A DNA stretch of 64,000 nt, taken from the IMG/VR virus record IMGVR_UViG_3300043077_000092. The stretch is one strand, 5' to 3'. The notes below the pieces were generated by a model. That model did no database searches. It was not told where the DNA came from and saw nothing but the letters and a program-made list of their open reading frames with translations. The DNA comes from a virus. Taxonomy: Duplodnaviria; Caudoviricetes. The translations under genes and the position numbers were made by a program. Below are positions 1,201-51,537 of this stretch, one piece after another; within the stretch, counting starts at the first letter, position 1, and every line of letters starts with the position of its first letter.

Positions 1201-3549
1201 ATGAAACTAATAAAGGTTCGCGACAACAAAAATAGACCCATTAACAATTTAGATGTCATGATGGGTGCATTATTCGGCGATAAAGTACCGAGAGAATTTG
1301 TCGTTGACAAATACTACAAAGCTGGAGATAGAGTTTACACGTTTGATGACGATGGGAACTTGAACGTCTGGATTTGTAATCTCAGTGGTACATTCAAGAC
1401 TTGCAGAGAACCAAACTTTTCAGAATGGTCTCTCAATTCGATTATTGAGCAATACAAGAATCGCCCGGTTACAATACCGGGCGAAACAATTAATCCTCAG
1501 ATGTATGAGTGTAGATCCGCTGTATCTGAAAGAGATGAATACATTGAATATGATGGATTCGCTCATTTTGATACTAATGTAAAAGGATTTAATCTGGGTG
1601 ACTATAATGGTGAAGATGATATCGTTGATATTTATTTACGTAGAGAGCATTCAGACCATTACTTACGCAGAGAGGATTACAAACTTGCAGGATACAAGTT
1701 GCGTATATCACTTCCTCTTGAGGATATGGTAGACGAATCGACAAATACGACAAAGTTTCTTCCTGAAGGAACTCTTGTTGAAGATACTGCGAACGAGAAT
1801 TACTGGTACAATGAAGACGGTGTTAATAAGACATGTGGTACCGGTGTTAATGGTATTCAGGAAGACAATATTGATGTACTTGCATCATTTGGAAAATCAA
1901 TTGAGTATGGATACAAAATTGCTAGTGTCAAGGCTGTATCTGTACATACCGTAGTTGGTTCTCCATTAAATTATCAACTTGAAAAGCCTATATACAGATT
2001 GGATGAAATCGAAGTTCCTGAACACGATGCAATAGGAAACAATGTCGATGGAGATGTACAAACTGTATCGTTCAAAGTAGATATTGAGCCCGATAGAGGA
2101 GTATATGATGTCGTTACATTATCCTATAGTAAGGATACTCAAAAGGTTTCTATCCACTCAGAAAACGGCTATGTACAGCAGGTGAAATTCACCGTTGTTG
2201 CAAGAAAAGATAAACCGCTTAGTGTCTTTATGATTGGAAGTAAAGCGGTAAGTCCAATGGCTCGGTTTATCAAAGTTATCAATGAATATGGAGAAGTGGT
2301 TGAAGTAGATGGGGAGCATTTAATCAAGATGCCTTGTCTTGACTTACTTCGTCATAACAGCTTTGAATTCGAGCTTTATGTAGACAGAGTATTTCGTAGT
2401 GACTATGAAGAGGTCATGGATGAAGAAGAGGGTTCAATCTATATCAGATTACTTGATACAACTGGTATTGATTGGGAGAATACTACGTTCTTATTCCACA
2501 TTTTCTATTGTATCTCTCAGGATGCTGCGATTATTAAGTCAAGCGATACAAAACTTGTGGAAACAGATAAGGATGCGTTCCGCATTGCACTTACAACGCA
2601 GTTTATCAACAAGTTCCAATGGCTTAAGATGAGAGAAGACTCAAAGCTTATCCCACCAGAATATACGGTTGGTAGTAAAGGAACTGCAAATATCATCAGT
2701 GAAGACCACTATCTGTCTATTGGACATAAGCTGAAAGCAGATGTCTTCAGTCTGGTCTTCAAAGATAACATTATTCGTCGTGCAGACAGTGCGACAGACA
2801 CATGTAACTCTGAGTCTTATCCTATTATGGAAGATACCAGAGACCTTACAGTACCATTTATGGATTATGATCCGGAATATGATGATTTCTTAATCTTCAA
2901 ATCTGGTGGAGTTCTTGTGAGCTCATCCAAGTGGTTCTTGAATAACAAGTATGTCAACTTGTATATACATGAGAATCCATTACTTCGTGGAGATTATGTA
3001 GATTTCAGATTGCTTGACCGTGATGATACGGTTCGTGTGGATAGTTTCTTCCTTGATGTCAATGTAGATGAGAAATCAGTTGATACTGGAATTGACTTAG
3101 ACAAATCTGCTTTCTATTTATTATTCACAGTAAGTGGAGAATACATCAGCAACTCCAAGTATACAGTTGATGGTTCGACCATTAAGTTCAAGGCAGAATC
3201 TGATGGTTGTGATCAACCATATACACCAACTCATGGTGGAAGATTGGAACTTGTAGTTGGAGTTTACAAAAAAGAATACAGTACGACACTTTATAAGATG
3301 ATTCAGATCGAAACAACCGTTGATGACCAGCGTGAATTCAGTTTCGAGGATAACATTGAGTACAACCCATCATCTGATAATCTCCTGATTTTCAGAAAAG
3401 ACGGAATGTATATCGGCGAAAGGTTTTACCATACGGATGAAACATGCGGAAAGATCATTATCGATAAAGGATCAGGAGTTCCGCTTGGAAGCTATATTGA
3501 CGTTCTACTTATACGAAATATGTCCGTAAGAGTAAAACCGACTATATAG
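1201..3549 (+). CDS. Putative virion structural protein (tail/baseplate-associated, beta-rich repeats)
   Basis: 782 aa; RBS AAGGTGGTGAGG; repeated 'L(L/I)F-x3-G-x2-(I/V)-x4-(Y/W)' units in the C-terminal half. Confidence 0.55.
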   Translation: MKLIKVRDNKNRPINNLDVMMGALFGDKVPREFVVDKYYKAGDRVYTFDDDGNLNVWICNLSGTFKTCREPNFSEWSLNSIIEQYKNRPVTIPGETINPQMYECRSAVSERDEYIEYDGFAHFDTNVKGFNLGDYNGEDDIVDIYLRREHSDHYLRREDYKLAGYKLRISLPLEDMVDESTNTTKFLPEGTLVEDTANENYWYNEDGVNKTCGTGVNGIQEDNIDVLASFGKSIEYGYKIASVKAVSVHTVVGSPLNYQLEKPIYRLDEIEVPEHDAIGNNVDGDVQTVSFKVDIEPDRGVYDVVTLSYSKDTQKVSIHSENGYVQQVKFTVVARKDKPLSVFMIGSKAVSPMARFIKVINEYGEVVEVDGEHLIKMPCLDLLRHNSFEFELYVDRVFRSDYEEVMDEEEGSIYIRLLDTTGIDWENTTFLFHIFYCISQDAAIIKSSDTKLVETDKDAFRIALTTQFINKFQWLKMREDSKLIPPEYTVGSKGTANIISEDHYLSIGHKLKADVFSLVFKDNIIRRADSATDTCNSESYPIMEDTRDLTVPFMDYDPEYDDFLIFKSGGVLVSSSKWFLNNKYVNLYIHENPLLRGDYVDFRLLDRDDTVRVDSFFLDVNVDEKSVDTGIDLDKSAFYLLFTVSGEYISNSKYTVDGSTIKFKAESDGCDQPYTPTHGGRLELVVGVYKKEYSTTLYKMIQIETTVDDQREFSFEDNIEYNPSSDNLLIFRKDGMYIGERFYHTDETCGKIIIDKGSGVPLGSYIDVLLIRNMSVRVKPTI

Positions 3550-3570
3550 AAGAGAGGGAGGGCGAATTTA

Positions 3571-4218
3571 ATGTCATTCTTAGGAAGATTGAAATGGCTC
3601 ATTACCGGAAACGGTGATGCACCATCAGCAACAGATGATAAAACCGCAGCGGGTACATCTAGTAGTCCAAACCACCCACTTACCGATGACAACACGGGAA
3701 TGACAGACGAAGAGTTTGTGGCAATACTTATGAATCATCCTATATTCGCTGAGTTAAGAGAATGGGAAGAGTATAGGGTAAGAGTACTTGACATTACAGA
3801 TCCGATCAAACGGAATATGGCTAGATTTTACCTTGGACTGTTCTTCAACAAATTCAAATGTGCTGTAGAGACATCGGTGAAAGAACATCACAAATATCTC
3901 GACGATACAGTAGCATTGAACAATTTAATAATCGAAACGATCAATGACGTCCGAGAGTCCGCTTTGGCAGGTGGGGTTCCGGAAATATTTCTGGATAAGT
4001 TTACGAACTATCTTTACACCCAGACTAAAATTTTCGACTCCACTTGTAAGGATTTGGATAGATTTGAATATTACAATAACCCACTCGCTCGTGCAACGTT
4101 CAGACTTGATTTGGAGTTTATGACTATACGGAATATAACTTCAGAGATAGAGTCTGTAATAAACGACATGAACGGACAGCTACATATGGCGTTAGAAGGT
4201 TCAGTGTTCGATGAGTAA
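3571..4218 (+). CDS. Hypothetical helical protein (possibly lysis-associated)
   Basis: 215 aa ORF; RBS GAGGGAGG. Confidence 0.6.
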   Translation: MSFLGRLKWLITGNGDAPSATDDKTAAGTSSSPNHPLTDDNTGMTDEEFVAILMNHPIFAELREWEEYRVRVLDITDPIKRNMARFYLGLFFNKFKCAVETSVKEHHKYLDDTVALNNLIIETINDVRESALAGGVPEIFLDKFTNYLYTQTKIFDSTCKDLDRFEYYNNPLARATFRLDLEFMTIRNITSEIESVINDMNGQLHMALEGSVFDE

Positions 4219-4248
4219 GGTTTTTGTTTTAAGAAAGGACTGAATGCT

Positions 4249-4857
4249 ATGCAATTAATACGTTTAGTTAGTCAGATCCCACCAGATTTGAGACGGTTAA
4301 CGCTTATTGTAGCTACAAGCACAACAACAACAACATCATCATCAAGTACAGCGACAGAGACGGTATCAACCTTGTCATCTTTAGTTAAACTAATTTCAGA
4401 TTTCGGAGTAGAGATAGTAATTACAGCAGTAATGGTAATCTTTATGTACCGCTACATGAAGAACCTCATAAAACGAGACAACGAACTCTATGAAAGCATA
4501 ATCCCGAAAGTAGAGGGTTTGAGTACGTCAATTAAGTCTATGGAATCTGACATCAACAAACTTGTGAGCAACCACAACACGCATTCAAATGCGATGTTAC
4601 GTGCTTTGGAGAAGGATCAAGATGAGATTCGAGACATAGTCTTCGAAAATCAGAACCAATTGAGAAATTTAGCTGCGAAAGTAGCTGCCTTACAAAGTAA
4701 CCAAGATATTATGCTCCGAATGATTGCGGCATTAAATAGCTACAATATGTCCAGAACTATATCTGGTGGTGAGGTAATTGATTTCACTCAACCGGAAGGT
4801 AACAGTAGTGTTGGGGATAAACCTTCTGGAAACAGTGACCCCCAGACAAAAAAATAA
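4249..4857 (+). CDS. Membrane protein with coiled coil, possible holin-like protein
   Basis: One hydrophobic segment (FGVEIVITAVMVIFMY) followed by a heptad-rich region; Thr/Ser run encoded by ACA/TCA repeats. Confidence 0.45.
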   Translation: MQLIRLVSQIPPDLRRLTLIVATSTTTTTSSSSTATETVSTLSSLVKLISDFGVEIVITAVMVIFMYRYMKNLIKRDNELYESIIPKVEGLSTSIKSMESDINKLVSNHNTHSNAMLRALEKDQDEIRDIVFENQNQLRNLAAKVAALQSNQDIMLRMIAALNSYNMSRTISGGEVIDFTQPEGNSSVGDKPSGNSDPQTKK

Positions 4858-4863
4858 CAATAG

Positions 4864-4910
4864 AAGAGAAACGAACTTGCAACAACCAACTTGTCAAGTT
4901 CGTTTCTCTT
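4864..4910. terminator. Bidirectional intrinsic terminator
   Basis: 16-bp inverted repeat AAGAGAAACGAACTTG/CAAGTTCGTTTCTCTT between convergent genes. Confidence 0.8.
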
Positions 4911-4913
4911 ATT

Positions 4914-5624
4914 TTAATGCTTTACTTCTATTTCCCGATACTTATCAATATCAATAACGCCATTGGTTACATGATAGATACTGGAGTTGTATTCTCCTGC
5001 CCAGAATTGATAATACTCTAAATACATATTGTAATTATCTACATTCATATCAAGCTGGGTTTCTGCGACGTAGATATCTTGTAGTGTATCAAGTATGTCA
5101 GAATCTGCTTTAATCTCTGGATGGTTATTGAGTAATGCATTAAGGGTTATATATCCATTATACGGATCATTTGAATAATCTTCATCCGATGGAAATTGGG
5201 TTTTGAATAATCTCTGTACAACTTGATCTTCTGAGTTGGTGCAGATTTCCTTTATCATATAGTATAAATCCGTAGATAACGCTTCAATCTGGTCATAATT
5301 AGTTGAAATCTCTAATGCCGTAGAAGCCATCATATCGGAATACAGTATCGCCCGTTCCTCTGCGTACTTACCATTATACGCATCCTGTGTCAATAATCTA
5401 AACCCAATGCAAAGGTTAAATACAACAACCATGAATAATACGGTTGGGTATAGGTATCTCATCCAACCATATTTGAAATAAACCCATTTGGAACCTTTTG
5501 CTCCATTAAACTGCGTTCCATTCTTGAGATATCTATTTCTTTTTCTATCACCTTCTGACAATATAGGTCTCCATTCCCTTTTTATCTTTTTTCTTGCTCT
5601 CGTTTCTTCTAAGTGACGATTCAT
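4914..5624 (-). CDS. lemA: LemA-family membrane protein
   Basis: N-terminal TM helix; LLNNHPEIKADSD...IYVAETQL...YN resembles the LemA YPELKAN...E..I...YN signature. Confidence 0.6.
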   Translation of the reverse strand: MNRHLEETRARKKIKREWRPILSEGDRKRNRYLKNGTQFNGAKGSKWVYFKYGWMRYLYPTVLFMVVVFNLCIGFRLLTQDAYNGKYAEERAILYSDMMASTALEISTNYDQIEALSTDLYYMIKEICTNSEDQVVQRLFKTQFPSDEDYSNDPYNGYITLNALLNNHPEIKADSDILDTLQDIYVAETQLDMNVDNYNMYLEYYQFWAGEYNSSIYHVTNGVIDIDKYREIEVKH

Positions 5625-5659
5625 GTGCTCACTCTCCTCTTCCTGAAAATGAATTTTTA

Positions 5660-5672
5660 AACATTATGGTAA
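5660..5672 (+). promoter_or_regulatory. Late-type promoter AACA-N6-TAA driving a non-coding transcript
   Basis: AACA TTATGG TAA; the same motif precedes about 12 structural/late genes in this window. Confidence 0.6.
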
Positions 5673-5935
5673 TGCTTTAAACCGGCGCTGTGTGTATAAG
5701 ATTGTGTAAATCAGGTATTCTCCTGTTATCGCTAATACGATTGAACTGGTCATTTGTTTTGATGTTGCGCCTTATGAAATAGTATTGCATGTTTTTCATT
5801 TGACATAGAAGACTCCTAAGAATTCAGTTATGCTTATACGATAATAACCTCTCGTGTAAGATTTGTAACAGCCGGTAAAGCAGACATTGAGTAACCGTAT
5901 GCATCTTTTTGCCAGTGCATACGGTTACTCTTTGT
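5671..5935 (+). ncRNA. Candidate ~220-260 nt structured small RNA
   Basis: No convincing ORF; promoter at 5660; 5' end (TGCTTT-AA-ACCGGC) pairs with 5871-5882 (GCCGGTAAAGCA); internal stems; ends in a terminator. Confidence 0.55.
5889..5930. terminator. Intrinsic terminator (bidirectional)
   Basis: 15-bp perfect inverted repeat GAGTAACCGTATGCA/TGCATACGGTTACTC followed by TTTGTT. Confidence 0.8.
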
Positions 5936-5947
5936 TCGTTTCATAAT

Positions 5948-7444
5948 TTAGATGTTTGCATATGCATAAATACCTGCGATACCATCTTTAAATGGCGCAG
6001 TATCAATATCATAGTTACCATCATTATGGGAAACAAACATATTGCTACGTGGGTTATCACGCTTATAATATTCTTCCCCAATCTTCCCTATCTTGTGGCA
6101 GAATATATTCTCGATATCACCATCGAAATCCGCATTTGCTTTGTTCAGTACATATGTCGGAATACCCATACAATAATCCGTAATATCGCATTCAATCTTT
6201 GCAACTCGCATGGTAATATACGAACCAAAGTTGATTGATGGGTTTCTGTCAATACTGATATACAAGTTTTGATGTGTCATAAGATGAATCATGAGCTTAT
6301 ATATCTTCTCAGAATATACAACGGAAGCCTCAGATAACATATCCCAAGCTTGCGGGTATTCCTTCTGATATAAATCATGGATGAGTGCAACAAGTTCCAT
6401 CTTATAAAGTTCCATGAAAGTTGTATAGCCAAGACCAATGTGGTCTGCTCTTAACTCCGGATCAGGAACGATAACATTTCGTCCTGTGAAGTTTAATCGA
6501 CCACCAAGAATCTGCTCGTTGATAATACCTTCTTTTCTCTTAATCGTATCAAAGGACATATCCCATAAGCTATTCACATAACCCTGAATACGATACAGAA
6601 TATTTTCCTTTCTCAGATAAGCGGTATCTTTCTTTTTCTTTTCTCTGTAATCGACACGACGTTTCCATTCAAAATCATCGTTTAACAACATATGGTCAGA
6701 GAACAACTTCTGGAAGATTTTATCTTCATCCGAATATCTTATATCGCCATTTCTGACCATCCATTTTCTTAACATCATATTGTAACAAGGGATACAATGA
6801 ACGAATACTTCGTCTCTTCGAATACGGAAGAACTCATATCCCTCATGTTTCTTATTCTTCTTGTAATATACTTCAAGTATCTCATCAAATCGTTCAAAGA
6901 ACTCAATCATACCAATTCCATAATACGGTGATGACTTATTGTCCATATACTTCGAACGTTCCTGTTCAGGTACATAATGTAACATCTGATACAGATGCGT
7001 ATTGCTAAAATACCAACCGAGTTTCAGATACATACCCGGATTGATTATATAGTTTCTATCTAACACGAACCAACCTGTTTTGCGAATTCTTGTATCAATA
7101 AATCGTACAGGTTTGTTACATACTGGACACAGAGTCTCAGAATCCATATATCTTCTTCCGATAAGGTTACCGCATGGACAAGAATACCTATCCTCAAAAG
7201 CATTCTCATCTCTCCAGTCAGTACCATATAGCGGAGAATGTATAGAATAAAGACCGGGGTCTAAATCTAAATCTGTCTTTCCTTTCTCTGTAATTCTAAA
7301 TCCGACGCCAGTGGTCAATTCATCTTTACATCTTGAATCCCAATCTGAAATAACGATTCGGAATCTAGGATTACATATCGTTGAACCATCTGCTGTCGTT
7401 TTGTGTTCTTTTTGGAGTAACTCTCCTGTTAAGTACGATGGCAT
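5948..7444 (-). CDS. rpoC: Phage multisubunit RNA polymerase beta'-like subunit (N-terminal plus catalytic region), probably non-virion RNAP
   Basis: Zn-binding CPCG...CPVC, LGGRLNFTGRNVIVPDP, DRNPSI, catalytic NADFDGD; preceded by an early-type promoter. Confidence 0.9.
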   Translation of the reverse strand: MPSYLTGELLQKEHKTTADGSTICNPRFRIVISDWDSRCKDELTTGVGFRITEKGKTDLDLDPGLYSIHSPLYGTDWRDENAFEDRYSCPCGNLIGRRYMDSETLCPVCNKPVRFIDTRIRKTGWFVLDRNYIINPGMYLKLGWYFSNTHLYQMLHYVPEQERSKYMDNKSSPYYGIGMIEFFERFDEILEVYYKKNKKHEGYEFFRIRRDEVFVHCIPCYNMMLRKWMVRNGDIRYSDEDKIFQKLFSDHMLLNDDFEWKRRVDYREKKKKDTAYLRKENILYRIQGYVNSLWDMSFDTIKRKEGIINEQILGGRLNFTGRNVIVPDPELRADHIGLGYTTFMELYKMELVALIHDLYQKEYPQAWDMLSEASVVYSEKIYKLMIHLMTHQNLYISIDRNPSINFGSYITMRVAKIECDITDYCMGIPTYVLNKANADFDGDIENIFCHKIGKIGEEYYKRDNPRSNMFVSHNDGNYDIDTAPFKDGIAGIYAYANI

Positions 7445-7512
7445 TTTATTACCCTCCTTGAAAAAGTTATTTCATGTAACAACACGTTATTCTCTTGTCC
7501 GTGCCATCTTAT

Positions 7513-7520
7513 TAATATAT
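7513..7520 (-). promoter_or_regulatory. Early-type promoter (TATATTA)
   Basis: Motif shared with nine other upstream regions of minus-strand non-structural genes. Confidence 0.55.
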
Positions 7521-7541
7521 ACTTTAACTACATACAAAAAA

Positions 7542-7570
7542 ATGAGAGGAACGAATTCTGTCCCTCTCAT
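7542..7570 (-). terminator. Intrinsic terminator
   Basis: ATGAGAGG/CCTCTCAT stem followed by TTTTTTGTA on the minus strand. Confidence 0.7.
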
Positions 7571-7579
7571 CAATTTTAG

Positions 7580-8032
7580 TTATTCTTTACCAAACTCGTC
7601 AATCTTAAAGACTTCGTTATTATAATAATCAATCCTATCTGCGGCAACCAATTCATCACCACACTCATTTGCAAGTTTCTCTGTTGAGAAGATTCCCATT
7701 AGGGATGCATCGCAATACCACGGGTCGGTTCCCTCGGTATATCCCATGACGCAATAGATATCGGGATTATATGGAACCAGTTCTTCATCCGGCACATCGA
7801 TCTCAGTCGGTTCGTCATGATCCTCTAAATCCTTAAGAGTACTCTCAACGAGTTCTTTAATGTTACCAACTGCATCCATATGTACGCACTTATTGATGTG
7901 GTCTACATCGATGATGCATTTCTCTCCTAATGGATGAAATCTGTAACCTTTTGGTAGGGTTAGTAGAATCTTTATTGCATCCTCAACTGTCTCGATAGGT
8001 CCATCAAATGCCTCAATTGCTTTCTTTTTCAT
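7580..8032 (-). CDS. Hypothetical early protein
   Basis: Likely start MKKKAIE after RBS AAAGGA; early motif at 8086-8093. Confidence 0.65.
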   Translation of the reverse strand: MKKKAIEAFDGPIETVEDAIKILLTLPKGYRFHPLGEKCIIDVDHINKCVHMDAVGNIKELVESTLKDLEDHDEPTEIDVPDEELVPYNPDIYCVMGYTEGTDPWYCDASLMGIFSTEKLANECGDELVAADRIDYYNNEVFKIDEFGKE

Positions 8033-8100
8033 ACTTAATCGTTCCTTTCTTGTACAAGTTTTTATTTTACTTTGGTACTCCAATTTAATATAGGTTTAAA

Positions 8101-8137
8101 AAGACGAGAGGATAATCTATGAAAATCCTCTCGTCTT
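8101..8137 (-). terminator. Intrinsic terminator
   Basis: AAGACGAGAGGAT/ATCCTCTCGTCTT inverted repeat. Confidence 0.75.
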
Positions 8138-8144
8138 AATGTTT

Positions 8145-9398
8145 CTAAACAAATATATCTTTAGGGTCTAAGATATAAGTACGAACTGTACTGTCATGAG
8201 ATTTCTTCATCTTTGCTCGAAGTGTCGAATTGGAAACTCTACCAAAGGTAAGCCCAATGGTATTAATTCCCAGTAGATAGTATCTATCTCCAGCACATCT
8301 GTTACAAAGTTTCTTACCGATACAGTAATCTGGTAATCTAATCTGTACAGTCTTACCCATATATTTATCTTGATTACTTGGCTCCAATCTGATGTATTTG
8401 CCTCCAGACTTAATGAAATGATACAGATAATAATTCATATTGGTTTTATCCAACGTAACTGTTGCACAATTCTTACACCCGCAATCTGTTCCACGTTCAT
8501 CTAATACAACGTCCTGAAAACCAGCAGACAGTTTCTTTGTAATATATCCGCATTCACCTGTACCAATTGCCTTTGGATAAAATCCAGATACAACTGCGTT
8601 TGCAAGTGATGGAATGTTCTCTTTCGGTATTCCTTCATATAAGGAATTTGTTACAATCTCAAACTCACCTTTATATGCATTCCAAATAGGTCCCTTTGTA
8701 CATAACCATTGACGATATGCATTATCAAAAGAACCTCTCGCACCAGATGAATACAATTCATATGATGGGTCATCTTTTAATTCTTCTTGGGCTAATGCAA
8801 CAAGTTCGTCCTGAATATGTTTGTAAGTGATAGCATCGTTGTTTTCAATTGCCTCTTTATTCTCAGCAATCAATTGTTTCTTACGAGCTGTAACCTTAGG
8901 TAATGGTTTTGCAGTCTTGATACTGATTGATGAACAAATTTGGGTATTAACAGTAAACGCTAACCAGCATAATCGATTCATATACTCGATATACTTTGTT
9001 ACGCATTCACCAGTCTCATCAAGCATAATTGCAGTTGCAATCATATCATCAATCTTTCCAAGACCTTTCTTTGTGATTTCAAAATTAACATATCCAACCT
9101 CTTTCTGAAAATAGGGCTCAATCAGATACTTATTGAATATGAATAGTCCACAGTTTGTGAGCACCTTTTCGCTATTAAAATACTCTCCCTTTTCCAGAGT
9201 CATCTCGTCGAATGTATTAAATTTTGATGGGATTATTTTTGGAACCATTTTCCCAGTGTCTGGGTCTTTCACCTGTTTTGTCGTATCTAACTTATCTGCG
9301 AATAAATCGTCGAATAATGTCTGAGTTATGTCGTCTGGTTTCAAATCCAAAAACATCTGCTTTTCAGCAGCCGTAATGGTTCGTTTCTGTCTTGCCAT
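8145..9398 (-). CDS. rpoC: Phage RNA polymerase beta'-like C-terminal subunit, probably virion RNAP
   Basis: SGARGS, bridge-helix-like KAIGTGECGYITKKL, DCG, C..C.G Zn site, trigger-loop-like LRAKMKKSH; lies in a late operon. Confidence 0.85.
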   Translation of the reverse strand: MARQKRTITAAEKQMFLDLKPDDITQTLFDDLFADKLDTTKQVKDPDTGKMVPKIIPSKFNTFDEMTLEKGEYFNSEKVLTNCGLFIFNKYLIEPYFQKEVGYVNFEITKKGLGKIDDMIATAIMLDETGECVTKYIEYMNRLCWLAFTVNTQICSSISIKTAKPLPKVTARKKQLIAENKEAIENNDAITYKHIQDELVALAQEELKDDPSYELYSSGARGSFDNAYRQWLCTKGPIWNAYKGEFEIVTNSLYEGIPKENIPSLANAVVSGFYPKAIGTGECGYITKKLSAGFQDVVLDERGTDCGCKNCATVTLDKTNMNYYLYHFIKSGGKYIRLEPSNQDKYMGKTVQIRLPDYCIGKKLCNRCAGDRYYLLGINTIGLTFGRVSNSTLRAKMKKSHDSTVRTYILDPKDIFV

Positions 9399-51324: not shown

Positions 51325-51537
51325 CTAAGATAATGCATTCAATATGAATCGCATATCCCGAGAAAATGATTCGGGGTCATCATTAATGTGAGCACGGTTA
51401 TATTCGTACTCACTCATGAAACTTTTGGTCGTGGTCGGACTTCGAGTTTCACGATATTGGTTCTGGGAAATCAGAGATCCTGGAACAACACCAACAACAG
51501 AGTTGTTGATATTACCAAATAGATGGTCAGTTATCAT
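51325..51537 (-). CDS. Small hypothetical protein
   Basis: RBS AAAGGAGGTGA. Confidence 0.6.
   Translation of the reverse strand: MITDHLFGNINNSVVGVVPGSLISQNQYRETRSPTTTKSFMSEYEYNRAHINDDPESFSRDMRFILNALS

Follow-up and report, generated by a model that had tools for sequence, protein, structure and literature searches.

The spacer behind the non-virion RNA polymerase (nvRNAP) beta' gene of an uncultured gut jumbo phage is predicted to encode, on the strand opposite to its two flanking genes, a non-coding late RNA of about 260-270 nt (5671..5942, plus strand), in which a body of approximately 215 nt is followed by a terminator hairpin. We tentatively read this as an nvRNAP-made late RNA of about 265 nt that is antisense to the spacer of an early unit comprising beta' and a membrane protein, a reading that we regard as possible rather than secure. 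Jumbo phages with two RNA polymerases of their own carry out the early-to-late switch without host factors; to our knowledge, the way in which early messages are turned off in such phages is poorly understood. The window analyzed here, 64,000 nt in length, comes from an IMG/VR virus record of 220 kb (93% complete), whose minus strand it represents; loci outside the window are given in the same coordinates.

The spacer itself (5625-5947, 323 nt) is flanked on both sides by minus-strand genes. The gene facing the predicted RNA (5948..7444, minus strand) encodes the N-terminal part of nvRNAP beta', with matches to Pfam RNA_pol_Rpb1_2 (4e-7) and PHROG 2987 (9e-50) and at most 30% identity to the homologues in BpSp, LPJP1, phiR1-37, the S6 group and AR9 (25% for AR9). 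Downstream of the spacer lies the gene for a 236-aa protein with a membrane segment (4914..5624, minus strand), for which no Pfam or PHROG match was found at threshold; the name lemA that had been given to it corresponds to a Pfam LemA hit of E=0.14, far below threshold. Past this gene, a strong hairpin at 4844-4933 sits between the convergent genes 4249-4857 (plus) and 4914-5624 (minus), gives only miRNA-like noise in Rfam, and probably serves as a bidirectional terminator at the end of the beta' unit.

The sequence AACATTATGGTAA at 5660-5672 on the plus strand is an exact AACA-N6-TAA, as the initial annotation had claimed, and its core (5660..5671, AACATTATGGTA) is an AR9-type late promoter AACA-N6-TA with a predicted start at A5671. 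In AR9 the late consensus is AACA-N6-TA/G, the last base being the transcription start, and the early consensus is AAATATATATTAT-N6-G (PMC5312081). The phage genome studied here has 101 AACA-N6-TA sites, 30 of them intergenic, with intergenic DNA making up 10% of the genome. The motif stands 15-60 nt upstream of a Shine-Dalgarno (SD) sequence plus ATG at 16 large genes, typically 24-36 nt before a strong AAGGAGG-type SD, and the genes led by it include that of an 888-aa virion protein at 13066. As far as can be judged from sequence, AACA-N6-TA is thus a working late promoter of this phage. A crude position weight matrix (PWM) derived from the gene-proximal sites puts the 5660 site at rank 31 of 101, beside the other orphan antisense sites and below the gene-proximal training set. 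The longer form AACA-N6-TAA is depleted in the window (8 observed, 18 expected) and, in three related genomes, is rarer than its reversed control (38 against 62, 36 against 97, and 18 against 41 per whole record, or about one motif per 12-14 kb of strand), a depletion that fits a functional promoter motif avoided elsewhere through selection against stray late promoters.

In other intergenic regions a second motif is seen, TATATTA(A) preceded by a T-rich stretch, which is of the early type and matches the AAATATATATTAT of AR9. A copy of this early-type promoter, TATATTAA, precedes beta' at 7513-7519 (minus strand) and is conserved in two close relatives, L001 and L002. On the minus strand of the spacer, 91 nt upstream of the 236-aa gene, a further AACA-N6-TA (5716..5727) has a PWM rank of 77/101 and no counterpart in L001 or L002, and is probably there by chance; for the same two reasons we rejected the idea that an RNA copy of this template-strand promoter could serve as an nvRNAP decoy. 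Within the 5' leader of beta', a second backward AACA-N6-TA (7478-7489, plus strand) points through the early TATATTAA promoter to a bidirectional terminator at 7541-7571, some 60-90 nt away; L001 and L002 have none at the matching place.

The position of the promoter in relatives is the strongest line of evidence. In IMG/VR, three contigs encode a beta' that is 84% identical: L001 and L003, which are identical over the 400 bases compared, and the distinct L002. Gene order is kept in these relatives, with beta', a spacer of ~240 nt, and a homologue of the 236-aa protein (36% identity over 103 aa for the syntenic gene of L002). The L001/L003 and L002 spacers cannot be aligned with that of the window or with each other, and only short words are shared, while all of them hold AACA-N6-TAA on the strand opposite to beta', 22-50 nt from the start of the next gene (AACAATTTATTAA in L001, AACATTAATGTAA in L002). 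The more distant L012 has a beta' of 31% identity and an unrelated downstream gene, to whose product the 236-aa protein is not homologous, and still carries the backward motif at the matching place; its AACAATATGGTAATGC and the AACATTATGGTAATGC of the window are identical at 14 of 16 bases, and two hairpins then follow. From the motif densities we estimate an expectation of ~0.01-0.02 motifs per genome on a given strand of a 160-240-nt gap, and a joint chance of ~1e-4 to 1e-6 that L001, L002 and L012 would all carry the motif at the corresponding position and strand. The putative late promoter is kept in place and orientation in three lineages besides that of the window, and the comparative evidence as a whole comes from three or four independent lineages. 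L006, whose beta' (44% identical) is closer than that of L012, has a 96-nt gap without the motif, and in L006, L007-L011, L013 and L014 the gaps are short or differently filled and hold no comparable element.

Other searches around the locus returned little. The phage collection gave no match to nucleotides 5400-6200 or, by tblastn, to the 236-aa protein; IMG/VR gave none to the same protein or to an exact 20-mer from the 5' end of the predicted RNA. A profile scan of IMG/VR added only distant relatives, a metagenome scan with beta' produced one contig, which is without the 3' end of the gene, and nothing was found in a scan of genome contigs. Many further beta' relatives, 72-86% identical, are present as proteins in Logan and ENA.

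Downstream of the promoter, the plus strand holds no open reading frame with a ribosome-binding site; the sole frame is one of 30 aa opening with GTG, in agreement with what had been claimed. Six-frame peptides of the three spacers (window, L001 and L002) show no colinear similarity, and none is conserved. Leaderless translation from the AAUG start was considered and rejected, as the frame has 2 codons in the window and 1 in L002, and L001 has no AUG. The minus strand of the spacer has an 18-codon sORF (5750..5806, with its ATG at 5806) preceded by AGGAG-N6-ATG and overlapped by a 40-aa frame at 5677-5799. This sORF is not conserved: the GGAGG of L001 is not followed by a start codon, and in L002 the frame is 2 codons long. 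Two C-rich words occur in the predicted RNA: the anti-Shine-Dalgarno-like CUCCU (5813..5817) in a weakly paired stretch, and CCUCUC (5848-5853) in a hairpin loop, where 5848-5851 have unpaired probabilities of 0.73-1.0. The word CCUCCGA is unpaired in the folds of both L001 and L002. The meaning of CUCCU is ambiguous, since its minus-strand complement reads as an SD.

The predicted transcript would end at the hairpin 5889..5930, a perfect 15-bp stem (5889-5903/5916-5930) with a 12-nt loop, which adds about -30 kcal/mol to the fold. The terminator described in the initial annotation is present as a hairpin; on the plus strand this hairpin is followed by TTTGTTCGTTTC, the T-tract is only moderate, and a simple terminator scan missed it because of the 12-nt loop. 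The T-richer tail (5931-5942) is that of the plus strand, the 8 nt past the stem being TTTGTTCG (5 T) there and AATGTCTG (3 T) on the minus strand; this bias favors the plus strand in the window, favors it mildly in L002, and is missing in L001. A hairpin is present at the same place in the relatives. The word AAAGATGCATACGG is common to the window hairpin (5889-5930) and that of L001 (7504-7545), and, in beta' orientation, forms the downstream arm in the window and the upstream arm in L001; the stem looks as if it had been rebuilt around a kept half.

Ahead of this hairpin, the ends of the predicted RNA close upon each other. Pairing of the 5' end with 5871-5888 had been proposed, and RNAfold gives a 12-bp helix that joins 5673..5686, beginning 2 nt after the predicted start, to 5871..5882, ending 6 nt before the hairpin (5673-5678/5877-5882 and 5681-5686/5871-5876, pair probabilities 0.66-1.0). 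When the first 40 nt were paired with the last 40 nt, the helix was reached by 13 of 500 dinucleotide shuffles in the window, so that it beats the other 487, and by 0/500 in L001 and 24/500 in L002, giving a combined p of ~2e-4 by our own Fisher arithmetic. In L001, +3 to +14 pair with 12 bases ending 9 nt before the hairpin, so the helix starts at +3 of the predicted transcript in both genomes; the two helices have a CCGGC/GCCGG core in common and entirely different outer arms, and two G-U pairs of the L001 helix would turn into C-A on the opposite strand. The predicted L002 transcript has a 5' hairpin that begins at +5, and a 10-bp helix then joins +24..+33 to the bases before the hairpin.

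Of the fold, L001 and L002 keep an end-to-end closing helix, built from different sequence. The minimum free energy structure of the window RNA (-50.8 kcal/mol) is multi-branched and is not a rod with a central bubble; the inner stems listed in the initial annotation can each pair, and yet forcing them together yields -36.3 kcal/mol, 14.5 worse. A plus-strand preference had also been seen in the G-U pairs. The absolute folding energy is indeed lower on the plus strand, and the difference vanishes once composition is controlled, with z-scores of -2.15 (plus) and -2.05 (minus) without the hairpin and of -5.1 and -4.9 with it. Conservation of the fold in related phages, which had been set as a test, holds for the closing helix in L001 and L002 and fails for the interior, where their folds do not stand out from shuffles (z -1.56 and -0.78). 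What recurs is a predicted anatomy of promoter, closed ends, loose body and hairpin, and not an intricate conserved fold.

Among known RNAs, the initial annotation had likened the element to 6S-like polymerase decoys and to packaging RNAs. Its core proposal, a non-coding plus-strand transcript driven by a late promoter and filling the gap, is supported by the predictions above; the analogy is not. With cmscan against Rfam (4000-8000, both strands, E<=10) no 6S RNA and no pRNA was detected, only noise in the form of miRNA- and snoRNA-like hairpin matches. Like 6S RNA (RF00013 and relatives), the predicted RNA measures around 200 nt, has its ends paired together, and is encoded by an entity with an RNA polymerase of its own; unlike 6S RNA, it has no covariance model match at that threshold, pays the cost stated above for a rod-like model, and lacks a conserved central bubble. 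With the phi29 pRNA (RF00044) it shares phage origin, structure, and a size of similar order, but it has no Rfam match, is found beside a polymerase gene rather than at a genome end or among packaging genes, and has no conserved fold.

The closest known counterpart is the Bacillus jumbo phage AR9 (Lavysh et al. 2017), in which antisense RNAs arise from seven late promoters; these RNAs appear mostly as infection ends and have been assigned no role (PMC5312081). Both phages use the AACA-N6-TA/G grammar, the logic of two polymerases, and an early TATATTA-type motif for the virion RNAP. In contrast, the antisense RNAs listed for AR9 overlap coding genes, g270 (the N-terminal part of nvRNAP beta') is absent from that list, and only a 66-nt gap follows g270, whereas the RNA predicted here fills a 323-nt spacer, ends before the coding sequence, has its ends joined by a closing helix, and is conserved in position. 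The most economical reading places the 5671-5942 RNA with the AR9-type late antisense transcripts. It is at present a well-supported prediction of an element of an ordinary kind, not of a new class.

If the RNA is such a late cis-antisense transcript, nvRNAP would start at A5671 late in infection, transcribe the plus strand, and stop at or just after the 15-bp hairpin (~5931-5942), a few bases before the beta' stop codon. The first bases of the RNA would be locked in the helix with the bases before the hairpin, yielding a stable molecule that would be fully complementary to the spacer (i.e. 3' UTR and intercistronic leader) of the early transcript of beta' and the membrane protein; because of this complementarity, it would most likely act in cis. 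Duplex formation or head-on transcription could then mark or block the early message once the polymerase that it encodes is active. We infer that the early transcript reads through the hairpin, as neither an early nor a late motif stands ahead of the downstream gene in L001 and L002. It counts against this explanation that the closing helix would be superfluous in a purely antisense role. Face-to-face promoters, as in the pR/pL pair of coliphage 186, are a known means of control in phages by convergent interference or by cis-antisense RNA. By analogy, the promoter of the later program would here fire head-on into the earlier transcription unit, with the difference that a strong hairpin stands between promoter and gene. 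A module resembling type I toxin-antitoxin systems or a mini-gene with its antisense RNA finds no conserved small ORF under the predicted RNA. Together with the similar promoters that face early mini-genes, the backward late promoter kept behind nvRNAP beta' in several uncultured lineages hints at a general design: antisense RNA made by the late polymerase against early units, the gene of one of its own subunits among them; if true, this would be a simple feedback or shut-off device, and would offer a handle for annotating non-coding RNAs in metagenomic jumbo phages.

Other readings of the spacer give the function to different molecules. One is a stable late sRNA acting in trans, with closed ends and with C-rich words that would pair with the SDs of early phage or host mRNAs or, in a variant, titrate a protein, its position beside beta' being incidental. 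The closing helix that begins at +3 in the window and L001, the 5' hairpin of L002, the CCUCCGA exposed in both relatives together with the CUCCU and CCUCUC of the window, and the 5'-terminal AAUG...CAUU-type stems with which other orphan late transcripts also begin all agree with such an sRNA. We nevertheless consider it somewhat unlikely, given that its C-rich words are equally SD-like GGAGG on the minus strand, that at another locus of this kind (L088, described below) the apparent anti-SD simply complements the SD of a 22-aa minus-strand sORF, and that neither the interior folds nor the body sequence are conserved. Strong pairing of the RNA with its own beta' start region (z -4.2 in the window) is lost in L001 and L002 (-0.6 and -0.9), and we treat it as chance. 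The more specific proposal of a conserved, end-closed trans-acting sRNA, used for anti-SD shut-off of early or host translation or for feedback on beta' gene expression, appears quite unlikely to us; if true, jumbo phages would gain their first described class of functional sRNA. In phiKZ, differential RNA-seq confirmed no phage sRNA, and such RNAs were guessed to be late (PMC8244752). The functional RNA could instead be that of the minus strand, a structured intercistronic leader or processing site in the early message of beta' and the membrane protein, acting as an RNase III-type stem or an SD-like stabilizer, in which case the backward promoter would be a road-block, an insulator or silent. 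The leader of the downstream gene that had been offered as an alternative belongs here and, apart from its LemA identity, may hold, because the helix forms equally well on that strand: shuffles reach it in 2/500, 4/500 and 15/500 cases for the window, L001 and L002, and the L002 helix is 3 bp longer in its minus-strand version. A hairpin without a U-tract on the minus strand makes read-through plausible, the downstream gene of L001 and that of L002 have no promoter motif of their own in front, and RNA contigs cover beta', spacer and downstream gene alike. What this reading leaves unexplained is a rare, depleted motif kept on the opposite strand in four lineages, one of which (L012) has an unrelated downstream gene, and a helix that starts exactly at +3 in two of them; moreover, the two G-U pairs of L001 turn into C-A mismatches. 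We regard it as rather doubtful.

A tiny gene on the minus strand (either the 18-aa frame from ATG 5806 or the frame of 40 aa at 5677-5799), with a late promoter running antisense to it, would have a good AGGAG-N6-ATG start, and would recall the mini-genes of this genome, at least six copies of which exist, several faced by backward late promoters. It is extremely unlikely all the same, as tblastn with two mini-gene members finds six copies and none in the spacer, the starts and frames of L001 and L002 do not preserve it, no frame shows peptide similarity, and the spacer has no early promoter motif. An ordinary spacer, with a hairpin at the 3' end of beta' and a fortuitous promoter-like word and inverted repeat, would account for the mid-rank PWM score, a body fold z of only about -2, and the absence of the motif from L006. 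Against it stand the joint motif probability and the recurrence of the closing helices, both estimated above, and we hold pure coincidence to be very unlikely.

Three small metatranscriptome runs from the gut contain 10-16% of the words that were sampled from 3000-9000. All 14 contigs at 99% identity or more fall within 5070-7433, i.e. on beta', the spacer and the 236-aa gene, and the neighboring beta-subunit gene and the plus-strand genes on the left have none. One more piece, the fifteenth, maps to 4313-4349 with 4 mismatches and has loose ends; it looks foreign. By our own calculation, DNA carry-over would be unlikely to confine all 14 contigs to 42% of the stretch, so the unit seems to be expressed. 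Two contigs of the spacer (5726-5897 and 5723-5951) begin at 5723-5726 rather than at the predicted start 5671. The contigs have a depth of 2-8x and are unstranded, and thus neither prove nor refute a plus-strand RNA; we rejected the left ends at 5723/5726 and the uncovered parts as evidence for RNA ends, these being too thin (2-4x, unstranded).

Orphan late promoters are found elsewhere in the genome, most clearly opposite a family of mini-genes of 65-70 aa with a conserved C-terminal motif (...NDPxAFxRDxRFIMNxL), present in at least six copies. One copy is inside the window (51328-51537, minus strand), and others lie outside it at -55648..-55454, 75501-75698, 77908-78114, 139866-140003 and 146036-146227; at least three of six have the TATATTA early motif upstream. 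Four backward late-promoter sites, at -55718 (plus), 140221 (minus), 146432 (minus) and 146529 (minus), face three of the copies. These sites resemble the one at 5660 in being orphan AACA-N6-TA(A) motifs opposite an early gene, with an AAUG start and a 5'-terminal stem. They differ in that the mini-gene antisense RNAs would cover the whole conserved 65-70-aa ORF, while there is no conserved ORF under the 5671-5942 RNA. That the spacer itself is a decayed mini-gene copy was rejected, as tblastn with the two members places none of its six copies there; the word 'RISDN' is shared. Several orphan late transcripts would begin with AAUG..., their first bases folding at once into a stem (AAUG...CAUU-type), unlike those of the gene-proximal late promoters, which have short, A-rich, unstructured leaders.

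Three further loci outside the window carry late promoters or promoter-like words next to structured sequence. At ~-8420 to -8195 (plus strand), L088 is built like the 5671-5942 RNA, with CACA-N6-TA, a 5' hairpin, a second hairpin bearing CCUCCU in its loop, and a strong terminator. Opposite to it is a 22-aa sORF with a perfect AGGAGG-N5-ATG start, and its 'anti-SD' may be the mere complement of a real SD. At ~86300-86540 (minus strand), in L087, ~200 nt of G+C-rich sequence lie between a late promoter and a strong terminator, after which come a second late promoter and a gene of 1577 aa. A search of Rfam with L087 gave no match at E<=1, and the locus looks like a separate structured RNA or an attenuator-like leader. 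Lastly, at ~90198 (minus strand), on the edge of a 1.3-kb gene-free stretch, AACA-N6-TA is directly followed by a hairpin and a T-run, and the word, instead of being a promoter, may belong to a bidirectional terminator.
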